A stretch of 64,000 nucleotides of DNA from Candidatus Omnitrophota bacterium (GCA_963662715.1 OY759724.1:2010662-2074661); one strand, 5' to 3'; positions 15,923 to 22,735 are shown, counted from the stretch's first letter. Notes: a model not told the origin generated them from the letters alone. A program made the numbers and translations.

Positions 15923-17740
15923 ATGATGATTTTCAATGAAAAAATTTTCCGCCGCTGTCTTACGGTCCTTTTTCTTGTCCTCTGTCTTCAGGGGGGCTGG
16001 TTTCTCGCCAGAAAAGTCTATATTTCTGCAAAAATGTTCGCCGACGCCGGTTTGGATTATGACACATTACGCCGGCAATCAGAAGTTTCGCTGGCGGCTT
16101 TGCGGACCCGGGAGCTGTTGCCGCCTCGGGCCGATGTGTCGCTCCCCCCGAGTCAACGAACCCTTTCCAAGGTCCTGATTACTTATCTCCTTTTCCCGCA
16201 TCGTATTGTAGAATCGAGTCATTATCTCCTGGACTGGAACCAGCGGGTCACTGTTTATCCTCCCGGATGGGAGAGAATCCCTCTTACTTCGAATATTTTT
16301 TTATATGTGCATGGAAAAGAAGTTAAGCCCTTGTCGCCTTCTCCGTATCCTAAGTTGCCGCTCGCCGTTCTCCTGCCGGGCGTCGTTTGTTTTTTTGCGT
16401 ATAATGTTCTGTTGGGCAGTTTTGTCCTGCAAGCCTTGCATATCGCCCGCTGCCGGTATGATGATGCCTGGTATTACATGACGAGTTATTTGTTGGGATA
16501 TGTCGTATCAACGACGATGATATGGCTGCTTCTTTTAGCCGGGATGAAGTTGACGGCCGGTTCGGTGCTTTTCTGCTGGGGGACGCTGTGTGTGCTTGCG
16601 GGATGGATCCCCTGTTGGCAGCGCACATCCCGGGAAAAACAAATTTTACAGAGTCAGGATAATGTTGCAACGCAGGGCAAAATCTTGACTGCGGTTACGG
16701 GCTGGATATTGTTTTTGGTCCTGAGCGCTATATTTGTGGTAGCTGTTTCAAGCGGCGTTTCGGATTGGGACGGAATGTCACATTGGATCCTTAAATCCAA
16801 AGTATTTTATTATTATCAGGGGCTGAGATTCGATGCCACCCACCTGAATTCTTATCCGCTTTTATGGCCGTTAAACATCGCCTGTCAGTTCGTTTTGATG
16901 GGCGGGATGTTCGATGAACTAGCGAAATGGACGGCGGGTTTTTTCTTCCTGGCCTTCGTTGTGCAGCTTGAAAAATCCCTGCAGTATCTCGGCCTGAAGA
17001 CACATTGGCGCCGTTTGATTCTTGTTTTTTATGTGGTTTCCGCTTTTCACGACATTTTGAAACCCTGGTGGTATGTGCATTTTGTGTTCGCCAATGCCGA
17101 GAACATGTTTTTGGCTTTATGGGCGGCTGTTTTGACGCTCGTGATAAGATGGGTAAAAGACAAAAAACAAACAAATGCCTTGTGGCTGGCGCTTATTTTT
17201 ATGGCCGGCTTAAACCTGACAAAAGTTGAAGGCATGGTCGCGACAGGAATCCTGGGCGTCGTCATGAGTGTCCTTTTCCGTCGGGAAATATTTTGTCGAA
17301 AGGGACGGTTGAGTTTATGGCTGTGTTTGGCTTTTCTGTCCCTGGCCGTTCCGGTAGGCTGGTGGCAATGGCTTAAATGGCAGGGATATTCCCCGAGTTT
17401 TTCCCATATGCAGGAAGGATTGTCCTTGGTCAAACTTTTTTTATTATTTAAGATCAATTTAAAGCATTCTTTTGTCAACAATATGCCTATCCTGACGCTC
17501 CTTCTGGGGATATATGTTCTTGTTTTCCGCCGGGCCAGCCGATGGAGCGAGTCTGATATCCTGTTGGGGCTCATATCTGCGGGGATGATTTTTTTCACCT
17601 GGGGGGCGCATATCGGATATTCTTCAGATGAGATGAAAGTTATTCCCCCGGAAGTTTTTATAAGACTTTTTCTTCACGCAACCCCGCCGCTGGTCCTTTT
17701 CTTTTCAAGCCGGCTGTCTTCCGCACATTTTAAGGATTGA
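15923..17740 (+). CDS. large polytopic integral membrane protein of unknown function (at least 12 TM)
   Basis: 605 aa, hydrophobic throughout, with no recognisable catalytic motif. Confidence 0.6.
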   Translation: MMIFNEKIFRRCLTVLFLVLCLQGGWFLARKVYISAKMFADAGLDYDTLRRQSEVSLAALRTRELLPPRADVSLPPSQRTLSKVLITYLLFPHRIVESSHYLLDWNQRVTVYPPGWERIPLTSNIFLYVHGKEVKPLSPSPYPKLPLAVLLPGVVCFFAYNVLLGSFVLQALHIARCRYDDAWYYMTSYLLGYVVSTTMIWLLLLAGMKLTAGSVLFCWGTLCVLAGWIPCWQRTSREKQILQSQDNVATQGKILTAVTGWILFLVLSAIFVVAVSSGVSDWDGMSHWILKSKVFYYYQGLRFDATHLNSYPLLWPLNIACQFVLMGGMFDELAKWTAGFFFLAFVVQLEKSLQYLGLKTHWRRLILVFYVVSAFHDILKPWWYVHFVFANAENMFLALWAAVLTLVIRWVKDKKQTNALWLALIFMAGLNLTKVEGMVATGILGVVMSVLFRREIFCRKGRLSLWLCLAFLSLAVPVGWWQWLKWQGYSPSFSHMQEGLSLVKLFLLFKINLKHSFVNNMPILTLLLGIYVLVFRRASRWSESDILLGLISAGMIFFTWGAHIGYSSDEMKVIPPEVFIRLFLHATPPLVLFFSSRLSSAHFKD

Positions 17741-17775: not shown

Positions 17776-17804
17776 TTGCGGTGAGGAATGTTTTTCTGTA
17801 TAAT
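17776..17804 (+). promoter_or_regulatory. candidate promoter for the EndoQ-like/helicase operon (TTGCGG-N17-TATAAT, TG adjacent to -10)
   Basis: -35 'ttgcgg' at 17776-17781, -10 'tataat' at 17799-17804, and TG at 17797-17798. Confidence 0.35.
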
Positions 17805-17900: not shown

Positions 17901-19190
17901 ATGAAATATTACGCAGACTTTCATATCCATTCTCATTTCTCCCGGGCAACAAGCAAAGAACTCAATCTTGAACATTTATTTGTTTGGGCCCAAATCAAAG
18001 GGATTCAGGTTGTCAGCACCGGGGATTTTGTGCATCCCGGATGGTTGAAGGAGCTGAGGGAAAAACTTGTTCCGGCGGAGGACGGTTTGTACCGGTTAAG
18101 GCCGGATTTAGCCAAGCCCATGCAATCCCGTGTCCCTCCGGCTTGCCAGGGGGAAGTCAGGTTTATTTTATCGGCGGAGATTTCCAATATCTATAAAAGA
18201 ATGGACAAGGTCCGTAAAGTGCATAACGTGATCCTCGCCCCTAATTTATCTGTCGCTGAAGCTGTTCAGGGCCGGTTGGATGAGATAGGGAACATCCGTT
18301 CAGACGGCCGTCCTATCCTGGGGCTGGATTCCCGTAATCTGCTGGAAATTGTCCTGGAATCTGATCCTTTGAGCTTTCTTGTCCCGGCCCACATCTGGAC
18401 GCCGTGGTTTTCAGCCCTGGGCTCCAAAGGCGGCTTTGACCGCATCGAGGATTGTTTCGCCGATTTGACTCCGGAAATTTTTGCCGTGGAAACCGGCCTG
18501 TCTTCCGATCCTCCCATGAATTGGCGTTTGAGCCAATTGGACCCTTTTGTCATGGTTTCTTGTTCGGATGCTCATTCTCCGGCAAAACTGGGGCGCGAGT
18601 CGACCATCCTGGAAACGGATTTATCTTATCCGGCTATGTATAAAGCTTTGAAAGACCGTTCCGATAAAGGGCTGATCGGAACAGTGGAATTTTACCCTGA
18701 AGAAGGGAAGTATCATTATGACGGGCACCGGCAATGTCGGCAGCGCCTTCATCCCAGGCAAACCATAGCGAATAAAGGCCTTTGTCCGGAATGCGGGAAA
18801 CCGGTTACTGTCGGCGTTATGGCCCGCGTCGAGGAATTGGCCGATCACCCGGACGGCCGGAAATCTCCGAATGCCCGTGAATATTTCAGTTTGATCCCTT
18901 TGCCGGAAATCATCTCCGAGGCCCGGGGTGTCGGAGTCAATTCCAAAGCTGTCCAGACTGTTTTTATGGAAATGCTTGCAAAACTCGGTAATGAAATGGC
19001 GATTTTACAACATATCCCTGTTGCGGAAATTCAGAAGGTCAGCGGCAGTGTCATTGCCGAGGGGATACGGAGAATGAGGGAAGGACAAGTTGAGATCGCT
19101 GCGGGCTATGACGGTGAGTATGGAAAAATTAAGCTGTTCTCGGAAGATGAACGGGACAGCATCGACAACCAGCTCACCTTATTTGGGTAA
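17901..19190 (+). CDS. endonuclease Q-like PHP-domain protein (TIGR00375-like) with an internal zinc-finger
   Basis: N-terminal PHP signature 'YADFHIHSHFSRATSK...VVSTGDFVHPGW'. A His/Cys cluster 'HYDGHRQCRQRLHPRQTIANKGLCPECGKP' lies at the position of the EndoQ Zn-finger. Length about 429 aa, close to archaeal EndoQ. Confidence 0.5.
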   Translation: MKYYADFHIHSHFSRATSKELNLEHLFVWAQIKGIQVVSTGDFVHPGWLKELREKLVPAEDGLYRLRPDLAKPMQSRVPPACQGEVRFILSAEISNIYKRMDKVRKVHNVILAPNLSVAEAVQGRLDEIGNIRSDGRPILGLDSRNLLEIVLESDPLSFLVPAHIWTPWFSALGSKGGFDRIEDCFADLTPEIFAVETGLSSDPPMNWRLSQLDPFVMVSCSDAHSPAKLGRESTILETDLSYPAMYKALKDRSDKGLIGTVEFYPEEGKYHYDGHRQCRQRLHPRQTIANKGLCPECGKPVTVGVMARVEELADHPDGRKSPNAREYFSLIPLPEIISEARGVGVNSKAVQTVFMEMLAKLGNEMAILQHIPVAEIQKVSGSVIAEGIRRMREGQVEIAAGYDGEYGKIKLFSEDERDSIDNQLTLFG

Positions 19191-19197
19191 AACTTTG

Positions 19198-20748
19198 ATG
19201 GCGAATTTCCCCCAACCTGAAAATGTCAATGCGGCGCAATGGCGGGCCGTCAGCGCGCCGGGAGGCCGGTTGCTTATTATCGCCGGTCCGGGAACAGGCA
19301 AAACGCACACATTAACCTACCGCATTTTCTGTCGTCTTAAGGATTTAGCTCTCCCGCAAAAATTCTGCGTTATCACCTTCACGAATAAAGCGGCCGGTGA
19401 AATAAAGGAGCGGGTTCGGTCCCTTTGCGGGGAGGAGAAAGCCGGGCGGCAGTTAACCGTGGGCACATTTCATTCTTTCTGCTGGCAGATATTAAATGAG
19501 CATGCTCAAGACGCCGGCTTGCCGGCCCAGCTGCAATGTGCGGCTCCCCCGGATATCGCTGAAATGGCCAAGGCCATTTGGCCGCAAACAACAGCGGCGC
19601 AGCGGAAAAATATTTTGGCGCTGGTTTCATCCTGGAAATCCTGTTCTTACACGGCCCCGGTGCCCGATGAGGTTGTTGTGTACAACAGAGAGCTCAGGCA
19701 GCGGGGATTCCTGGATTTTGATGATTTGTTGTTGGAAACGTTAATTCTTCTCAGAAAAAATCCCGTATTATTACGTGAAATTCAGAACGGTTATCCGGAA
19801 ATTTTTGTCGATGAATATCAGGATATTAATCCTGTCCAGCATGACCTGTTGAAGCTGCTGGTGGGAAACAGCGGCGGGATCACCGCTATCGGGGACCCGA
19901 ACCAGGCGATTTATGGTTTCCGCGGATCGGATACGCGTTTTTTTGAAAGTTTCTCCGGAGACTTCCCGGGCGCACAGGTTATGACCCTGCAGGAAAATTA
20001 CCGCTCGGGAAAGAACATCCTGTCGGCCTCAAGTCAGGTGATTGAAAAGAATCCGGATTGCCAGGTCCCGGCCTTAACGGCGCAGATGTATGTTGACGGA
20101 AGACTCACGATTTATGAAGCGGCAACGGATAAGGCAGAGGCGGAATATGTTGTCCATAATATTGAAAAATTTGTGGGCGGGACAAGCATGTTTTCTCATG
20201 ACTCCGGGAGGGTGGATAGTCATGCGGAAGGGGAGTGGAGTTTCGGAGACATTGCCGTTTTATGCCGGTTAAAAGCCCAGATGAGACTTCTTGTAAAGGC
20301 TTTTGAGCAGTTGGGCATTCCGTCTCATGTGTCAGGACAGGAGGTGTCCGAGGAAGCCGAAGGCCTAGATTTTATCTGCCCCTCGCGGTACGATGATATT
20401 ACGCTGGACGTGGAAAAAGTGACTTTAATGACATTACACGCTTCGAAAGGACTGGAGTTTCCTGTTGTTTTTATCGTGGGCTGCGAGGAATGTCTGCTGC
20501 CGCTGCATTGGGAAAAGATGGTGTCGGACCGGGAAGAAGAACGCCGGTTATTTTATGTCGGGATGACCCGGGCCAAGGAACGGTTGTTTCTTACACGGGC
20601 CAGAAAGCGCGTGCTGTTTGGGAAGACCTATCAGCCGCGGATATCGCCGTTCCTGACAGATATCGAAGACAGCCTGAAGGACTATGAGGAGGCTATTTTG
20701 AGAAGCAAAAAGCGAAAAAAAGAAGACGAGCAGATGAGTCTGTTTTAA
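19198..20748 (+). CDS. compact UvrD/PcrA-family DNA helicase
   Basis: Motif I 'AGPGTGKTHTLT', II 'DEYQDINPVQ', IV 'ENYRSGKNIL', V/VI 'TLHASKGLEFPVVFIVG...YVGMTRAKERL'. Start taken at 'MANFPQPENV', 8 nt after the upstream stop. The ORF-track start at 19090 would overlap the upstream gene. Confidence 0.75.
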   Translation: MANFPQPENVNAAQWRAVSAPGGRLLIIAGPGTGKTHTLTYRIFCRLKDLALPQKFCVITFTNKAAGEIKERVRSLCGEEKAGRQLTVGTFHSFCWQILNEHAQDAGLPAQLQCAAPPDIAEMAKAIWPQTTAAQRKNILALVSSWKSCSYTAPVPDEVVVYNRELRQRGFLDFDDLLLETLILLRKNPVLLREIQNGYPEIFVDEYQDINPVQHDLLKLLVGNSGGITAIGDPNQAIYGFRGSDTRFFESFSGDFPGAQVMTLQENYRSGKNILSASSQVIEKNPDCQVPALTAQMYVDGRLTIYEAATDKAEAEYVVHNIEKFVGGTSMFSHDSGRVDSHAEGEWSFGDIAVLCRLKAQMRLLVKAFEQLGIPSHVSGQEVSEEAEGLDFICPSRYDDITLDVEKVTLMTLHASKGLEFPVVFIVGCEECLLPLHWEKMVSDREEERRLFYVGMTRAKERLFLTRARKRVLFGKTYQPRISPFLTDIEDSLKDYEEAILRSKKRKKEDEQMSLF

Positions 20749-20884
20749 ACGGGGACAGGCCGTCAAGCCGTTTAGAGGCTGTAGGGAGTGAACCTGTTTT
20801 TAAAATCTCTCAGCCAGCACGACGTAAAGCAACAGGCTGATTTAAGATAAAAGAGTTGTTTTTTAACCTGGAAAAGAGAATCAT

Positions 20885-21865
20885 ATGTTCATGAACTTAC
20901 GCAAGAATAAAGAAAATATTATTTATTTCATTGTCTCTCTTTTACTGCTTGAAACTGTGCGGGTCAAATATAATAAACTCGTCCAAAAAGAACAGTTTGA
21001 AAAGCAGGCCGGGGGAAGCGTTGTAAGAAGACAAAAAATGCTTCTTATGAAAGCGTCCTTCCTCTATGCCATATTCCTTTTTTGGCTGATGTTTGATTAT
21101 TTCACGACCCTCTCGGGTAAAATTAGCCTGGTCTACCCGCAGGCCCATTATTTGAAAACGAATATGGCCTTATTTTTAAATGGTATCCTATCCTACGGGC
21201 TCACGGCCTGGCTGATACGGTTTCTCTTGGAACTGTATATCATGAAAATGAATGAAGCGTTCGGTTTCTGGAAAAAACTGGGGCGGTCGGCCATTGACGG
21301 AACAAAGGCGATTGTTCACGCTCCCTTTAAAGCCGGCGGAGTCGTTAAAGATAAACTGGTCGATGGTGTTAAATCGGGGTCAGAAAAAGTCAGGGATACC
21401 GCCTGCGTCAGCGTTTACGCCGCCGGACGGCTTCCGGAGAATATGAAAGAAGCTGCGCAGGACAGTGAAAACTGGAAGTACGATGAACTTATCGCCAAAA
21501 TTTCCCAATTGGGGATTCCGGCTCTTGTTTTGATCATAGCCGTTGAGTTTACGGGACTGGTCGGCGCGGCTGCGATAGCCGAGGCCCTGGCTCTGCTGGG
21601 AGGCCCCTGGGGCATTGTCGGCGGGCTTGGCGTTTTGGGGATATTGGTCGTCATATCGAAGGGAATAGGGCGGTATGGATTTAAAGCCGTATTTGAAGGG
21701 GTTCTGAAAAACCTGTATAAAAAAGGTCATACGAAACAGGAAATTTTTCGGAAAGTCGAAGGATATAAAATGACCCGGAAGATGAAAGCTTCTTTGTTGA
21801 AGTATATTGAAGAATTAAGCGATAAACAAAACAGCGGGATATCCAAAGACAATCCCGGTGTTTAA
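20885..21865 (+). CDS. hypothetical membrane protein
   Basis: Multiple TM segments and a Gly/Ala-rich TM 'AAAIAEALALLGGPWGIVGGLGVLGIL'. No family recognised. Confidence 0.5.
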   Translation: MFMNLRKNKENIIYFIVSLLLLETVRVKYNKLVQKEQFEKQAGGSVVRRQKMLLMKASFLYAIFLFWLMFDYFTTLSGKISLVYPQAHYLKTNMALFLNGILSYGLTAWLIRFLLELYIMKMNEAFGFWKKLGRSAIDGTKAIVHAPFKAGGVVKDKLVDGVKSGSEKVRDTACVSVYAAGRLPENMKEAAQDSENWKYDELIAKISQLGIPALVLIIAVEFTGLVGAAAIAEALALLGGPWGIVGGLGVLGILVVISKGIGRYGFKAVFEGVLKNLYKKGHTKQEIFRKVEGYKMTRKMKASLLKYIEELSDKQNSGISKDNPGV

Positions 21866-22735
21866 TTAACGCAGGGCACTCAGAATCGTGTCGACCGGAT
21901 GGAGTTTGTTCAGGGCATAAAAATGTAAGCCAGGAGCGCCGTGTTGCAAAAGCTCCTGGCATTGCCGGATGGCGAACTCGATGCCTTCTTTGAGACAGCG
22001 GTCAGGATCATCTTGAATCGGTTCGAAAATGTTCTGTACTTCTTCCGGGATGGTTGTCCCGCATGTCCGGCAGAAACGGACAAGAGCATCGTAATTGGTG
22101 ATAGGCAGAATGCCCGGTATGATACGGGCCTGCACGCCAATCTGGCGTAATCTTTCGACGTAATGAAAATATTGCTGGTTGTCGAAAAATAATTGCGTGA
22201 TGACAAAATCGGCCCCGTTATCGATTTTTATCTTGAGATATCGGGCATCCTGATCTTTATCCGGACAGAGCAGATGTCCTTCGGGAAATCCTGCCACCCC
22301 GACACCGAAATCGTCCCCGAAATATTCGCGAATAAACGCACATAACTCACTTGAATATTTAAAATTGTTTTTTCCCGGCTGCCAATCCGGATTGTCTTTC
22401 GGGGGGTCGCCTCTTAAGGCTAGGACATTGCAGATACCCCGCTGCTTGATGTGTTCGAGGATATGTTTGATTTCCTCTTTTGTGTGGCAGACACAGGTCA
22501 GATGGGCAACACTCGGCAAAGCATAGGTGTCTTGGATATGCTGGACAATGTCGAAAGTGCGTTCCCGGTTCCCGCCGCCGGCTCCATAAGTGCAGGAAAT
22601 GAAGTCCGGCTGAAGATTTATGAGCTTTTCTATGGTTGCAAGAAGGTTTTGATACCCTTTTTCTGTTTTGGCAGGAAAAAGTTCGAAAGAAAACGTGCGC
22701 TCTTGCTCCGGGAATAGATCTGTTATCTTTTTCAT
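21866..22735 (-). CDS. metF: 5,10-methylenetetrahydrofolate reductase
   Basis: 'TFSFELFPAKTEKG...FISCTYGAGGG' and the overall MetF-family TIM-barrel pattern; about 289 aa. Confidence 0.85.
   Translation of the reverse strand: MKKITDLFPEQERTFSFELFPAKTEKGYQNLLATIEKLINLQPDFISCTYGAGGGNRERTFDIVQHIQDTYALPSVAHLTCVCHTKEEIKHILEHIKQRGICNVLALRGDPPKDNPDWQPGKNNFKYSSELCAFIREYFGDDFGVGVAGFPEGHLLCPDKDQDARYLKIKIDNGADFVITQLFFDNQQYFHYVERLRQIGVQARIIPGILPITNYDALVRFCRTCGTTIPEEVQNIFEPIQDDPDRCLKEGIEFAIRQCQELLQHGAPGLHFYALNKLHPVDTILSALR

Follow-up and report, generated by a model that had tools for sequence, protein, structure and literature searches.

A split EndoQ nuclease and 2B-less UvrD-like helicase module in Candidatus Omnitrophota and its fused relatives in other bacteria

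Endonuclease Q (EndoQ) was discovered in 2015. The archaeal enzymes PfuEndoQ and TkoEndoQ (structures 5ZB8 and 7K30) stand alone; archaeal EndoQ binds the sliding clamp PCNA through a C-terminal PCNA-interacting peptide (PIP) box and is stimulated by it (PMC4858679), and the Bacillus enzymes act at deoxyuridine (dU), deoxyinosine (dI) and abasic (AP) sites (PMC5961232). Published models of the steps that follow the EndoQ nick invoke a helicase (PMC4357722, PMC8438529). Here we describe two adjacent genes for an EndoQ-family nuclease and a compact UvrD-like helicase in a 64,000-nucleotide stretch of the genome of a Candidatus Omnitrophota bacterium (GCA_963662715.1 OY759724.1:2010662-2074661), the whole of which is called the window below. 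The pair is a real, functionally linked two-gene unit and a split, 2B-less variant of a known EndoQ-helicase family. With moderate confidence we read it as one functional unit, a split counterpart of bacterial EndoQ-UvrD fusions, that carries out clamp-tethered "nick and unwind" repair.

Part of this family has been seen before. Shiraishi et al. (2016) noted that bacterial EndoQ homologs bear beta-clamp motifs (PMC4858679), and Supplementary Fig. S1 of that paper shows homologs of two sizes with the C-terminal motif, short ones of 405-464 aa and long ones of 945-1244 aa, the latter including Desulforapulum autotrophicum WP_015906045, labeled "PcrA2," and proteins of Desulfovibrio, Sorangium, Caldilinea and Rhodothermus. 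The existence of the clade and the clamp motif of its EndoQ were thus already known, and the D. autotrophicum protein falls in one of the fusion clusters found here. Miyazono et al. (2018) referred to three EndoQ families "based on domain organization," after a 2017 paper. An explicit EndoQ-helicase fusion or partner was not found in the literature searched; the classification of Shiraishi et al. (2017) may describe one. An explicit statement of the helicase partnership, the helicase's own clamp motif, the motif at the fusion junction, the loss of 2B and the phylogenetic breadth of the family all appear to be unreported.

The gene at 17901-19190 encodes a full-length EndoQ-family nuclease. In a phmmer search of all PDB sequences PfuEndoQ (5zb8) was the only family match (E=1.7e-49), with residues 5-418 of the window protein aligned to residues 5-388. 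The AlphaFold2 (AF2) model, run on an EndoQ alignment that we call A3, has a predicted local distance difference test score (pLDDT) of 79 and a pTM of 0.83. It matches 5zb8 and 7k30 with TM-scores of 0.75-0.84 (Foldseek against 5zb8: TMq 0.78, TMt 0.83, E=1.9e-30), whereas the next-best PHP structure reached a TMq of only 0.32. The three domains of the archaeal fold are all present: the PHP catalytic domain, the Zn finger and the C-terminal helical domain (PF27218, MJ0043_C). A precomputed PF27218 assignment exists for the window protein (P0001) and its homologs; our local Pfam scan of the window EndoQ gave no match because PF27218 is newer than the local Pfam copy. Close homologs carry the NCBI label "endonuclease Q family protein."

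Conservation of individual residues follows the same pattern. In an alignment of the window EndoQ with ten bacterial relatives and PfuEndoQ (A1), the metal ligands H8, H10, E93, H108, H164, D223 and H225 are invariant and correspond to H8, H10, E76, H84, H139, D193 and H195 of the Pfu enzyme; D6 is also among the invariant residues that match Pfu metal ligands or the lesion pocket. The lesion-pocket residues H164, G199 and S201 are invariant too, and their Pfu equivalents, H139, G169 and S171, shut out T and A (PMC8307549). Three Zn ligands (C279, C295 and C298) are shared by all sequences including PfuEndoQ, but the first, H276, is invariant only within the bacterial clade and is replaced by Cys in PfuEndoQ. 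A preliminary description of this DNA, made from the sequence, had proposed a 429-aa EndoQ-like PHP protein with an internal His/Cys knuckle; that protein is present at the place given, and the structural comparison with PfuEndoQ, with the Zn finger kept, bears the assignment out.

The window EndoQ nevertheless differs from both groups of characterized enzymes. Identity to the archaeal proteins is about 30-34%, the bacterial clade carries extra residues around positions 66-86 and 97-104, and the extreme C-terminus carries QLTLF, a clamp-interaction peptide like the archaeal one but of another type than the PIP box. The archaeal enzymes stand alone; the window EndoQ is coupled to a helicase. 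The Bacillus-type enzymes (B. pumilus, B. subtilis and Brevibacillus WP_031414379) are likewise of the bacterial EndoQ family, but their alignment covers 59% of the query, with about 30% identity, and they are stand-alone proteins encoded beside NUDIX and spoIIM genes, and the Brevibacillus protein has no C-terminal QxxLF. The window EndoQ belongs to a divergent bacterial EndoQ subfamily.

The second gene encodes a superfamily 1A (SF1A) helicase related to UvrD, PcrA and Rep, as its Pfam matches (PF00580, E=1e-61; PF13361, E=1.8e-37) and its AF2 model (pLDDT 81; top Foldseek matches UvrD, PcrA and Rep, TMq 0.66-0.76) both show. It has all the helicase motifs of those enzymes (Q, I, Ia and II-VI), among which GPGTGKT (residues 30-36), DEYQD (205-209), GDPNQAIYGFRG (232-243) and VGMTRA (454-459) are invariant in the helicase alignment (A2). 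The preliminary description had called it UvrD-like, with its core motifs intact and a length below that of canonical UvrD, and the Pfam matches and alignment confirm this.

Subdomains 1A, 1B and 2A are present and 2B is absent. The helicase aligns to PcrA residues 11-379 and 556-645, and PcrA 380-555, the 2B subdomain, is without a counterpart; the short length of the protein (516 aa) is explained by this absence. In place of 2B is a short linker, predicted to be disordered, that sits exactly where UvrD, PcrA, Rep and most fusions carry 2B. Nor is there room for the C-terminal Tudor-like domain of UvrD, PcrA and Rep, in place of which the window helicase ends in a clamp peptide. The protein is thus a natural 2B-less UvrD-like SF1A helicase. 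It falls below the equivalog cut-offs for pcrA (TIGR01073, 345.8 versus 911.2 bits), uvrD (TIGR01075, 290.3 versus 1144.5 bits) and rep (TIGR01074, 290.3 versus 951.5 bits). UvrD1 from which 2B has been deleted gains helicase activity (PMC13646824). With no autoinhibitory 2B, the window helicase would probably be active as a monomer and be restrained by tethering instead.

The closest relatives of both proteins are found together in the long bacterial EndoQ homologs (~945-1244 aa), in which the EndoQ module is 50-66% identical to that of the window, the helicase region is orthologous (44-54%), the module order is the same and the protein ends in QLxLF. Aligned with one such fusion (P0241), the window helicase shows 44% identity to fusion residues 471-848 and 54% to residues 985-1110, and lacks the ~135 residues that the fusion carries between these two regions. 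Fusions in general hold ~135-170 extra residues at the position of the linker, and most keep a 2B of that size, whereas the window helicase has lost it. The window system differs further in being split into two separate ORFs (open reading frames), 7 nt apart, with a terminal clamp motif on each product. By sequence, the window helicase is a split ortholog of the helicase half of the EndoQ-UvrD fusions.

A HMMER search of 1.84 billion cluster representatives returned 3,888 clusters of EndoQ relatives at 50% identity. Of the best 150 cluster representatives (50-68% identity), 127 are at least 950 aa long with the EndoQ module at residues 1-428, and UvrD domains lie downstream of EndoQ in all eight long representatives scanned with Pfam. 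When one genome per species was scanned, confirmed EndoQ relatives were present in at least 598 species-level genomes. The arrangement counts given here rest on the best 80 of these, which span more than 15 phyla and include the named isolates Desulfonema magnum, Sorangium sp., Actinoallomurus soli, Streptomonospora halophila and Pseudoflavonifractor sp. The two modules form a single fused ORF at 60 of the 80 loci; at another 10 they are two same-strand genes, the helicase following EndoQ directly; four loci are cut by a contig end, five have no adjacent helicase, and one has a helicase-like gene upstream on the opposite strand. Fused or split-adjacent pairs therefore make up 70 of the 76 loci whose arrangement could be determined, and in fused and split loci alike EndoQ comes first and the helicase second. 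Because the 80 genomes hold the closest relatives and cluster representatives may favor long members, these fractions describe this bacterial clade and not all EndoQ.

The pairing suggested by the preliminary description is thus retained throughout more than 15 phyla, in most cases as a single fusion protein. Its statement that EndoQ normally stands alone holds for the archaea and for the Brevibacillus homolog (WP_031414379), the one Bacillales EndoQ examined, but not for the bacterial clade to which the window gene belongs. Comparison of the Omnitrophota EndoQ module with those of Chloroflexota, Actinomycetota, Firmicutes, Myxococcota and others gives 50-66% identity, an unusually high conservation that points to strong constraint, to horizontal spread or to both. 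All-versus-all clustering of 893 ORFs from 82 loci revealed no third partner conserved across phyla; a response-regulator cluster was set aside as generic, and a cluster present at 10 loci consisted of antisense shadow ORFs. An apparent Omnitrophota "fusion" (P0194, 862 aa, L001) was not used as evidence, because its contig is 3.4 kb long and encodes the N-terminal part of EndoQ as an ORF of its own.

The two window proteins each end in a pentapeptide that matches the published beta-clamp consensus QL[S/D]LF (PMC9690074): EndoQ in ...NQLTLFG and the helicase, after a basic linker, in ...DEQMSLF. The glutamine and phenylalanine are the best conserved positions, Q424 being invariant and F428 nearly so in EndoQ alignment A3 and Q512 and F516 both invariant in helicase alignment A2. 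Out of 120 homologs of each protein, 99 for EndoQ and 97 for the helicase have a QxxLF within the last nine residues, where it follows otherwise variable, charged tails. In its strict form it occurs in the last nine residues of 63 of 85 family ORFs versus none of the 808 other ORFs of the same loci. Both halves carry the motif in split systems of Omnitrophota, Planctomycetales, Myxococcales, the candidate phyla radiation (CPR) and a deltaproteobacterial metagenome-assembled genome (MAG; L061). Among 53 complete fusions the terminal motif is present in 49, and 28 also keep a recognizable second copy inside the protein, where the two modules meet. These junction peptides, at about residues 420-430 (L004-L083), read QLDLF, QKSLF or, in degenerate form, GASLF and GGLLF, and a low-complexity linker of 40-100 aa follows them. 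With a junction and a terminal motif, a fusion polypeptide would have two potential clamp contacts.

We propose the following scheme, in which binding to the clamp, the range of substrates, the sequence of steps and the strand polarity are as we infer them. Both polypeptides would be held on the beta sliding clamp (DnaN), whose dimer offers two pockets, by the QLxLF peptides at their C-termini. The EndoQ module would flip out a deaminated or abasic nucleotide (dU, dI, deoxyxanthosine [dX] or AP) and nick the strand immediately 5' of it; the SF1A helicase would load at the nick, move 3'->5' on the intact strand and peel off the lesion-bearing strand; and a polymerase on the same clamp would resynthesize the strand before ligase seals it. 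Such a sequence would be analogous to UvrD taking over after incision by MutH/MutL or UvrC. In mismatch repair and nucleotide excision repair (NER), UvrD classically unwinds DNA from a repair nick, and the role proposed for the window helicase is alike in this respect. A bolder version, which we put forward tentatively and think less probable than not, would make EndoQ-UvrD, fused or split, a self-contained, clamp-tethered and replication-coupled system for excising deaminated and abasic nucleotides, with the two clamp motifs holding nickase and helicase in the two pockets of one DnaN dimer.

Several points weigh against the nick-and-unwind proposal. The prediction of clamp binding rests on a short linear motif, and the only bacterial EndoQs assayed are stand-alone Bacillus-type proteins (PMC5961232). 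The TIGR00375 score of the window EndoQ (184.1 bits) is below the curated cut-off of 326.6, so an altered substrate range is possible. Work on UvrD1 indicates that a 2B-less helicase can be harmful and non-functional in NER (PMC13646824), and loss of 2B could accordingly mean a role in translocation or protein displacement. Relatives without an adjacent helicase (L008, L041, L063, L078 and L083, and also L046) imply that EndoQ can work without one. The first five belong to Thermodesulfovibrionales, Limisphaerales, a Planctomycetales MAG and a Desulfobacterales MAG; the downstream flank covered was 8 kb in L078 and L083 and ~6 kb in L063, whereas in L008 and L041 the contig stops after only ~1.5 kb. 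Of these five, L063, L083 and L008 keep a QxxLF-type ending. Finally, three genes stand between EndoQ and the helicase in another Omnitrophota locus (L002), whose EndoQ is 70% identical to that of the window; there and in L003 the pair are still neighbors on the same strand, and translational coupling is not always present. The inserted genes (L002:9521-11370 and L003:1693-3542) encode products of 160 aa, 104 aa (a TfoX_N-domain protein) and 320 aa.

The features of the window locus are collected in Table 1. The N-terminus of EndoQ is MKYYADFHIHSHFS. Its TAA stop (19188-19190) is separated from the helicase ATG at 19198 by 7 nt (19191-19197), and a further 136 nt separate the helicase from the membrane ORF. 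The preliminary description had this layout right, although each of three of its counts was off by one, giving 8 nt, 517 aa and 137 nt instead of 7 nt, 516 aa and 136 nt. Public annotation (P0121, 533 aa) places the helicase start at ATG 19147, which would overlap the 3' end of EndoQ by 44 nt; homolog lengths of ~500-520 aa and the N-terminal conservation seen in alignment A2 favor ATG 19198. The two genes are tightly packed whichever start applies. The stop of the membrane ORF abuts that of the convergent MTHFR gene (21865/21866), with no terminator-like hairpin between, and the MetF expected downstream is there. About 97 nt upstream of the EndoQ start lies TGTATAAT, the TG-TATAAT element pointed out earlier as a candidate promoter. 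A promoter and terminator consensus scan gave no signal above shuffled expectation; the sigma-70 consensus scan did not pick out TGTATAAT because no matching -35 hexamer accompanies it.

Table 1. Coordinates of features at the EndoQ-helicase locus, numbered from the first nucleotide of the window
Feature	Position	Strand	Basis
EndoQ-family lesion-specific endonuclease gene, 429 aa	17901..19190	+	ORF map, raw sequence, phmmer, AF2
UvrD/PcrA-like SF1A helicase gene, 516 aa	19198..20748	+	ORF map, Pfam, PcrA alignment, AF2
Zn-finger knuckle of EndoQ, H276-R-Q-C279 ... C295-P-E-C298, HCCC variant	18726..18794	+	alignments
QLTLF, beta-clamp-motif-like pentapeptide, EndoQ residues 424-428	19170..19184	+	homolog conservation
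Predicted-disordered 21-residue linker, helicase residues 383-403	20344..20406	+	pLDDT <50
QMSLF, beta-clamp-motif-like pentapeptide, helicase residues 512-516	20731..20745	+	homolog conservation
Multi-transmembrane (TM) ORF, 326 aa	20885..21865	+	ORF map
Convergent MetF/MTHFR gene	21866..22735	-	PF02219, E=3.5e-95
TGTATAAT, extended -10-like element, candidate promoter	17797..17804	+	read from sequence

Directly upstream of EndoQ (15923-17740) the window encodes a 605-aa multi-TM protein without a Pfam or NCBIfam match; it does not occur in the syntenic locus L002, which has an 88-aa ORF instead. GC skew is positive in every 2-kb bin of the window (0.06-0.18 over 1-64000), so the + strand, with EndoQ and the helicase, is probably the leading strand throughout. 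In an exact look-up, neither the EndoQ (P0001) nor the membrane ORF (ORF3) sequence was on record.

Among other explanations, the module might be a clamp-associated caretaker of replication forks instead of a base-lesion excision system. The helicase would then act as a translocase that clears proteins or R-loops or processes nascent strands, and the PHP nuclease would cut embedded ribonucleotides, flaps or blocked 3' ends, substrates that differ from those of archaeal EndoQ. The clamp motifs on both proteins would suit such a role, as would the established part of UvrD, PcrA and Rep as accessory replicative helicases and as suppressors of R-loops; the sub-cut-off TIGR00375 score and the insertions relative to Pfu leave room for other substrates, and other PHP domains are 3'-5' exonucleases (PMC3820547). 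However, the pocket residues that discriminate uracil and hypoxanthine and all the EndoQ-specific domains are conserved, and the assayed Bacillus and archaeal enzymes share dU/dI/AP specificity despite low identity (PMC8438529). We therefore think this account doubtful, while giving it some weight.

The preliminary description had also raised a restriction-like or anti-phage function, in which EndoQ would nick foreign DNA containing uracil or non-canonical bases and the helicase would drive its degradation or unwinding. Pairs of nuclease and helicase recur among defense systems, and an action against uracil-DNA phages has been proposed for Bacillus EndoQ, as Ugi does not inhibit it (PMC8307549). 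One parallel is Gabija, whose GajB is also a compact UvrD-like helicase of ~500 aa; the PADLOC models for GajB and RTasHel match the window helicase with E-values down to 1.9e-78. The solved GajB chains, however, match only residues 182-278 (E ~1e-15), whereas PcrA and UvrD match the window helicase over its full length (E=1e-66 to 1e-69; 1.7e-69 for PcrA in the PDB; TIGR01073, 346 bits), so the GajB matches reflect generic UvrD similarity. EndoQ had no PADLOC match and the helicase none beyond the generic GajB and RTasHel models, and we did not take the PADLOC scan as evidence of defense. The neighbors of the helicase are EndoQ, the membrane ORF and MTHFR, with no GajA (OLD-family ATPase-TOPRIM nuclease) or other conserved partner.

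Genomic context also speaks for the host. Omnitrophota share the order MlaE, MlaF, MlaD, DsbD-like, EndoQ, helicase and MTHFR, so the window helicase, unlike GajB, lies in a core-genome context and the locus in conserved synteny, not in a variable island. A family that keeps 50-66% identity across phyla and occurs in at least 598 species genomes is unlike defense genes, which evolve fast and are patchily distributed, and the clamp-binding motifs point to host replication or repair. By tblastn, homologs occur in none of 50,697 phage records and in one of 72,556 plasmid records, the latter a 733-kb replicon that carries a Bacillus-type EndoQ. A scan of IMG/VR yielded one distant stand-alone EndoQ homolog only, and its contig can be counted on the side of defense for having an SF2 helicase gene beside it. 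A defense role is unlikely, and a repair system, which the preliminary description had offered as the other option, is most likely; the EndoQ-like identity and the conserved pairing across more than 15 phyla support it well.

The IMG/VR contig itself (L084:3033-6005, IMGVR_UViG_3300043540_000188) encodes an EndoQ-like protein of 417 aa (28% identity) that does not end in QxxLF. Directly upstream is a gene for a 524-aa SF2 DEAD/DinG-like helicase (Walker A APTGSGKS, motif DEAD), so that the adjacency is that of a nuclease-helicase pair with a different helicase superfamily.

The downstream membrane protein had been counted as a possible third member of the cassette. In such a cassette it would cooperate with the other two proteins, for example as an anchor or effector. 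It is encoded on the same strand after the short gap given above, and it has weak PADLOC matches to BnzA (E=3e-4) and LeoBC (E=7e-4), but these are confined to a Gly/Ala-rich transmembrane region, and the protein has no Pfam or NCBIfam match. Its nine homologs in 5.8 billion proteins are all in the closest Omnitrophota relatives; two Band_7 genes take its position in L002 and L003, MTHFR follows the helicase directly in L009, and the 70 loci elsewhere that hold a fused or split pair all lack it. The membrane ORF is lineage specific and not part of the module, and this lack of co-conservation effectively refutes a three-gene cassette, which we hold to be very improbable.

That the two genes are independent and adjacent by chance or inherited synteny only, as the tolerated three-gene insertion and the relatives with no adjacent helicase might suggest, is already refuted by the one-ORF fusions at 60 of the 80 loci, which span more than 15 phyla, the constant order, the orthology of the helicase to the fusion half and the clamp motif common to both proteins, and is hardly credible.

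The nick-and-unwind reading thus connects an enzyme whose published models call for a helicase with a candidate for it: a bacterial EndoQ physically joined to a UvrD-type helicase, each with a clamp peptide, names the missing partner, and the resulting pathway is directly testable in cultivable hosts. Reviews up to 2021 place EndoQ in few bacteria (PMC8438529), a statement that the at least 598 species genomes, the more than 15 phyla among the best 80 and the 3,888 clusters correct. A naturally 2B-less helicase also provides a ready-made test of the model of 2B autoinhibition. If the bolder version of the proposal is right, the helicases of Omnitrophota, Planctomycetales and Elusimicrobia would be naturally 2B-less, constitutively active and regulated only by tethering, and the EndoQ-helicase family would be a widespread bacterial route parallel to glycosylase-initiated base excision repair.

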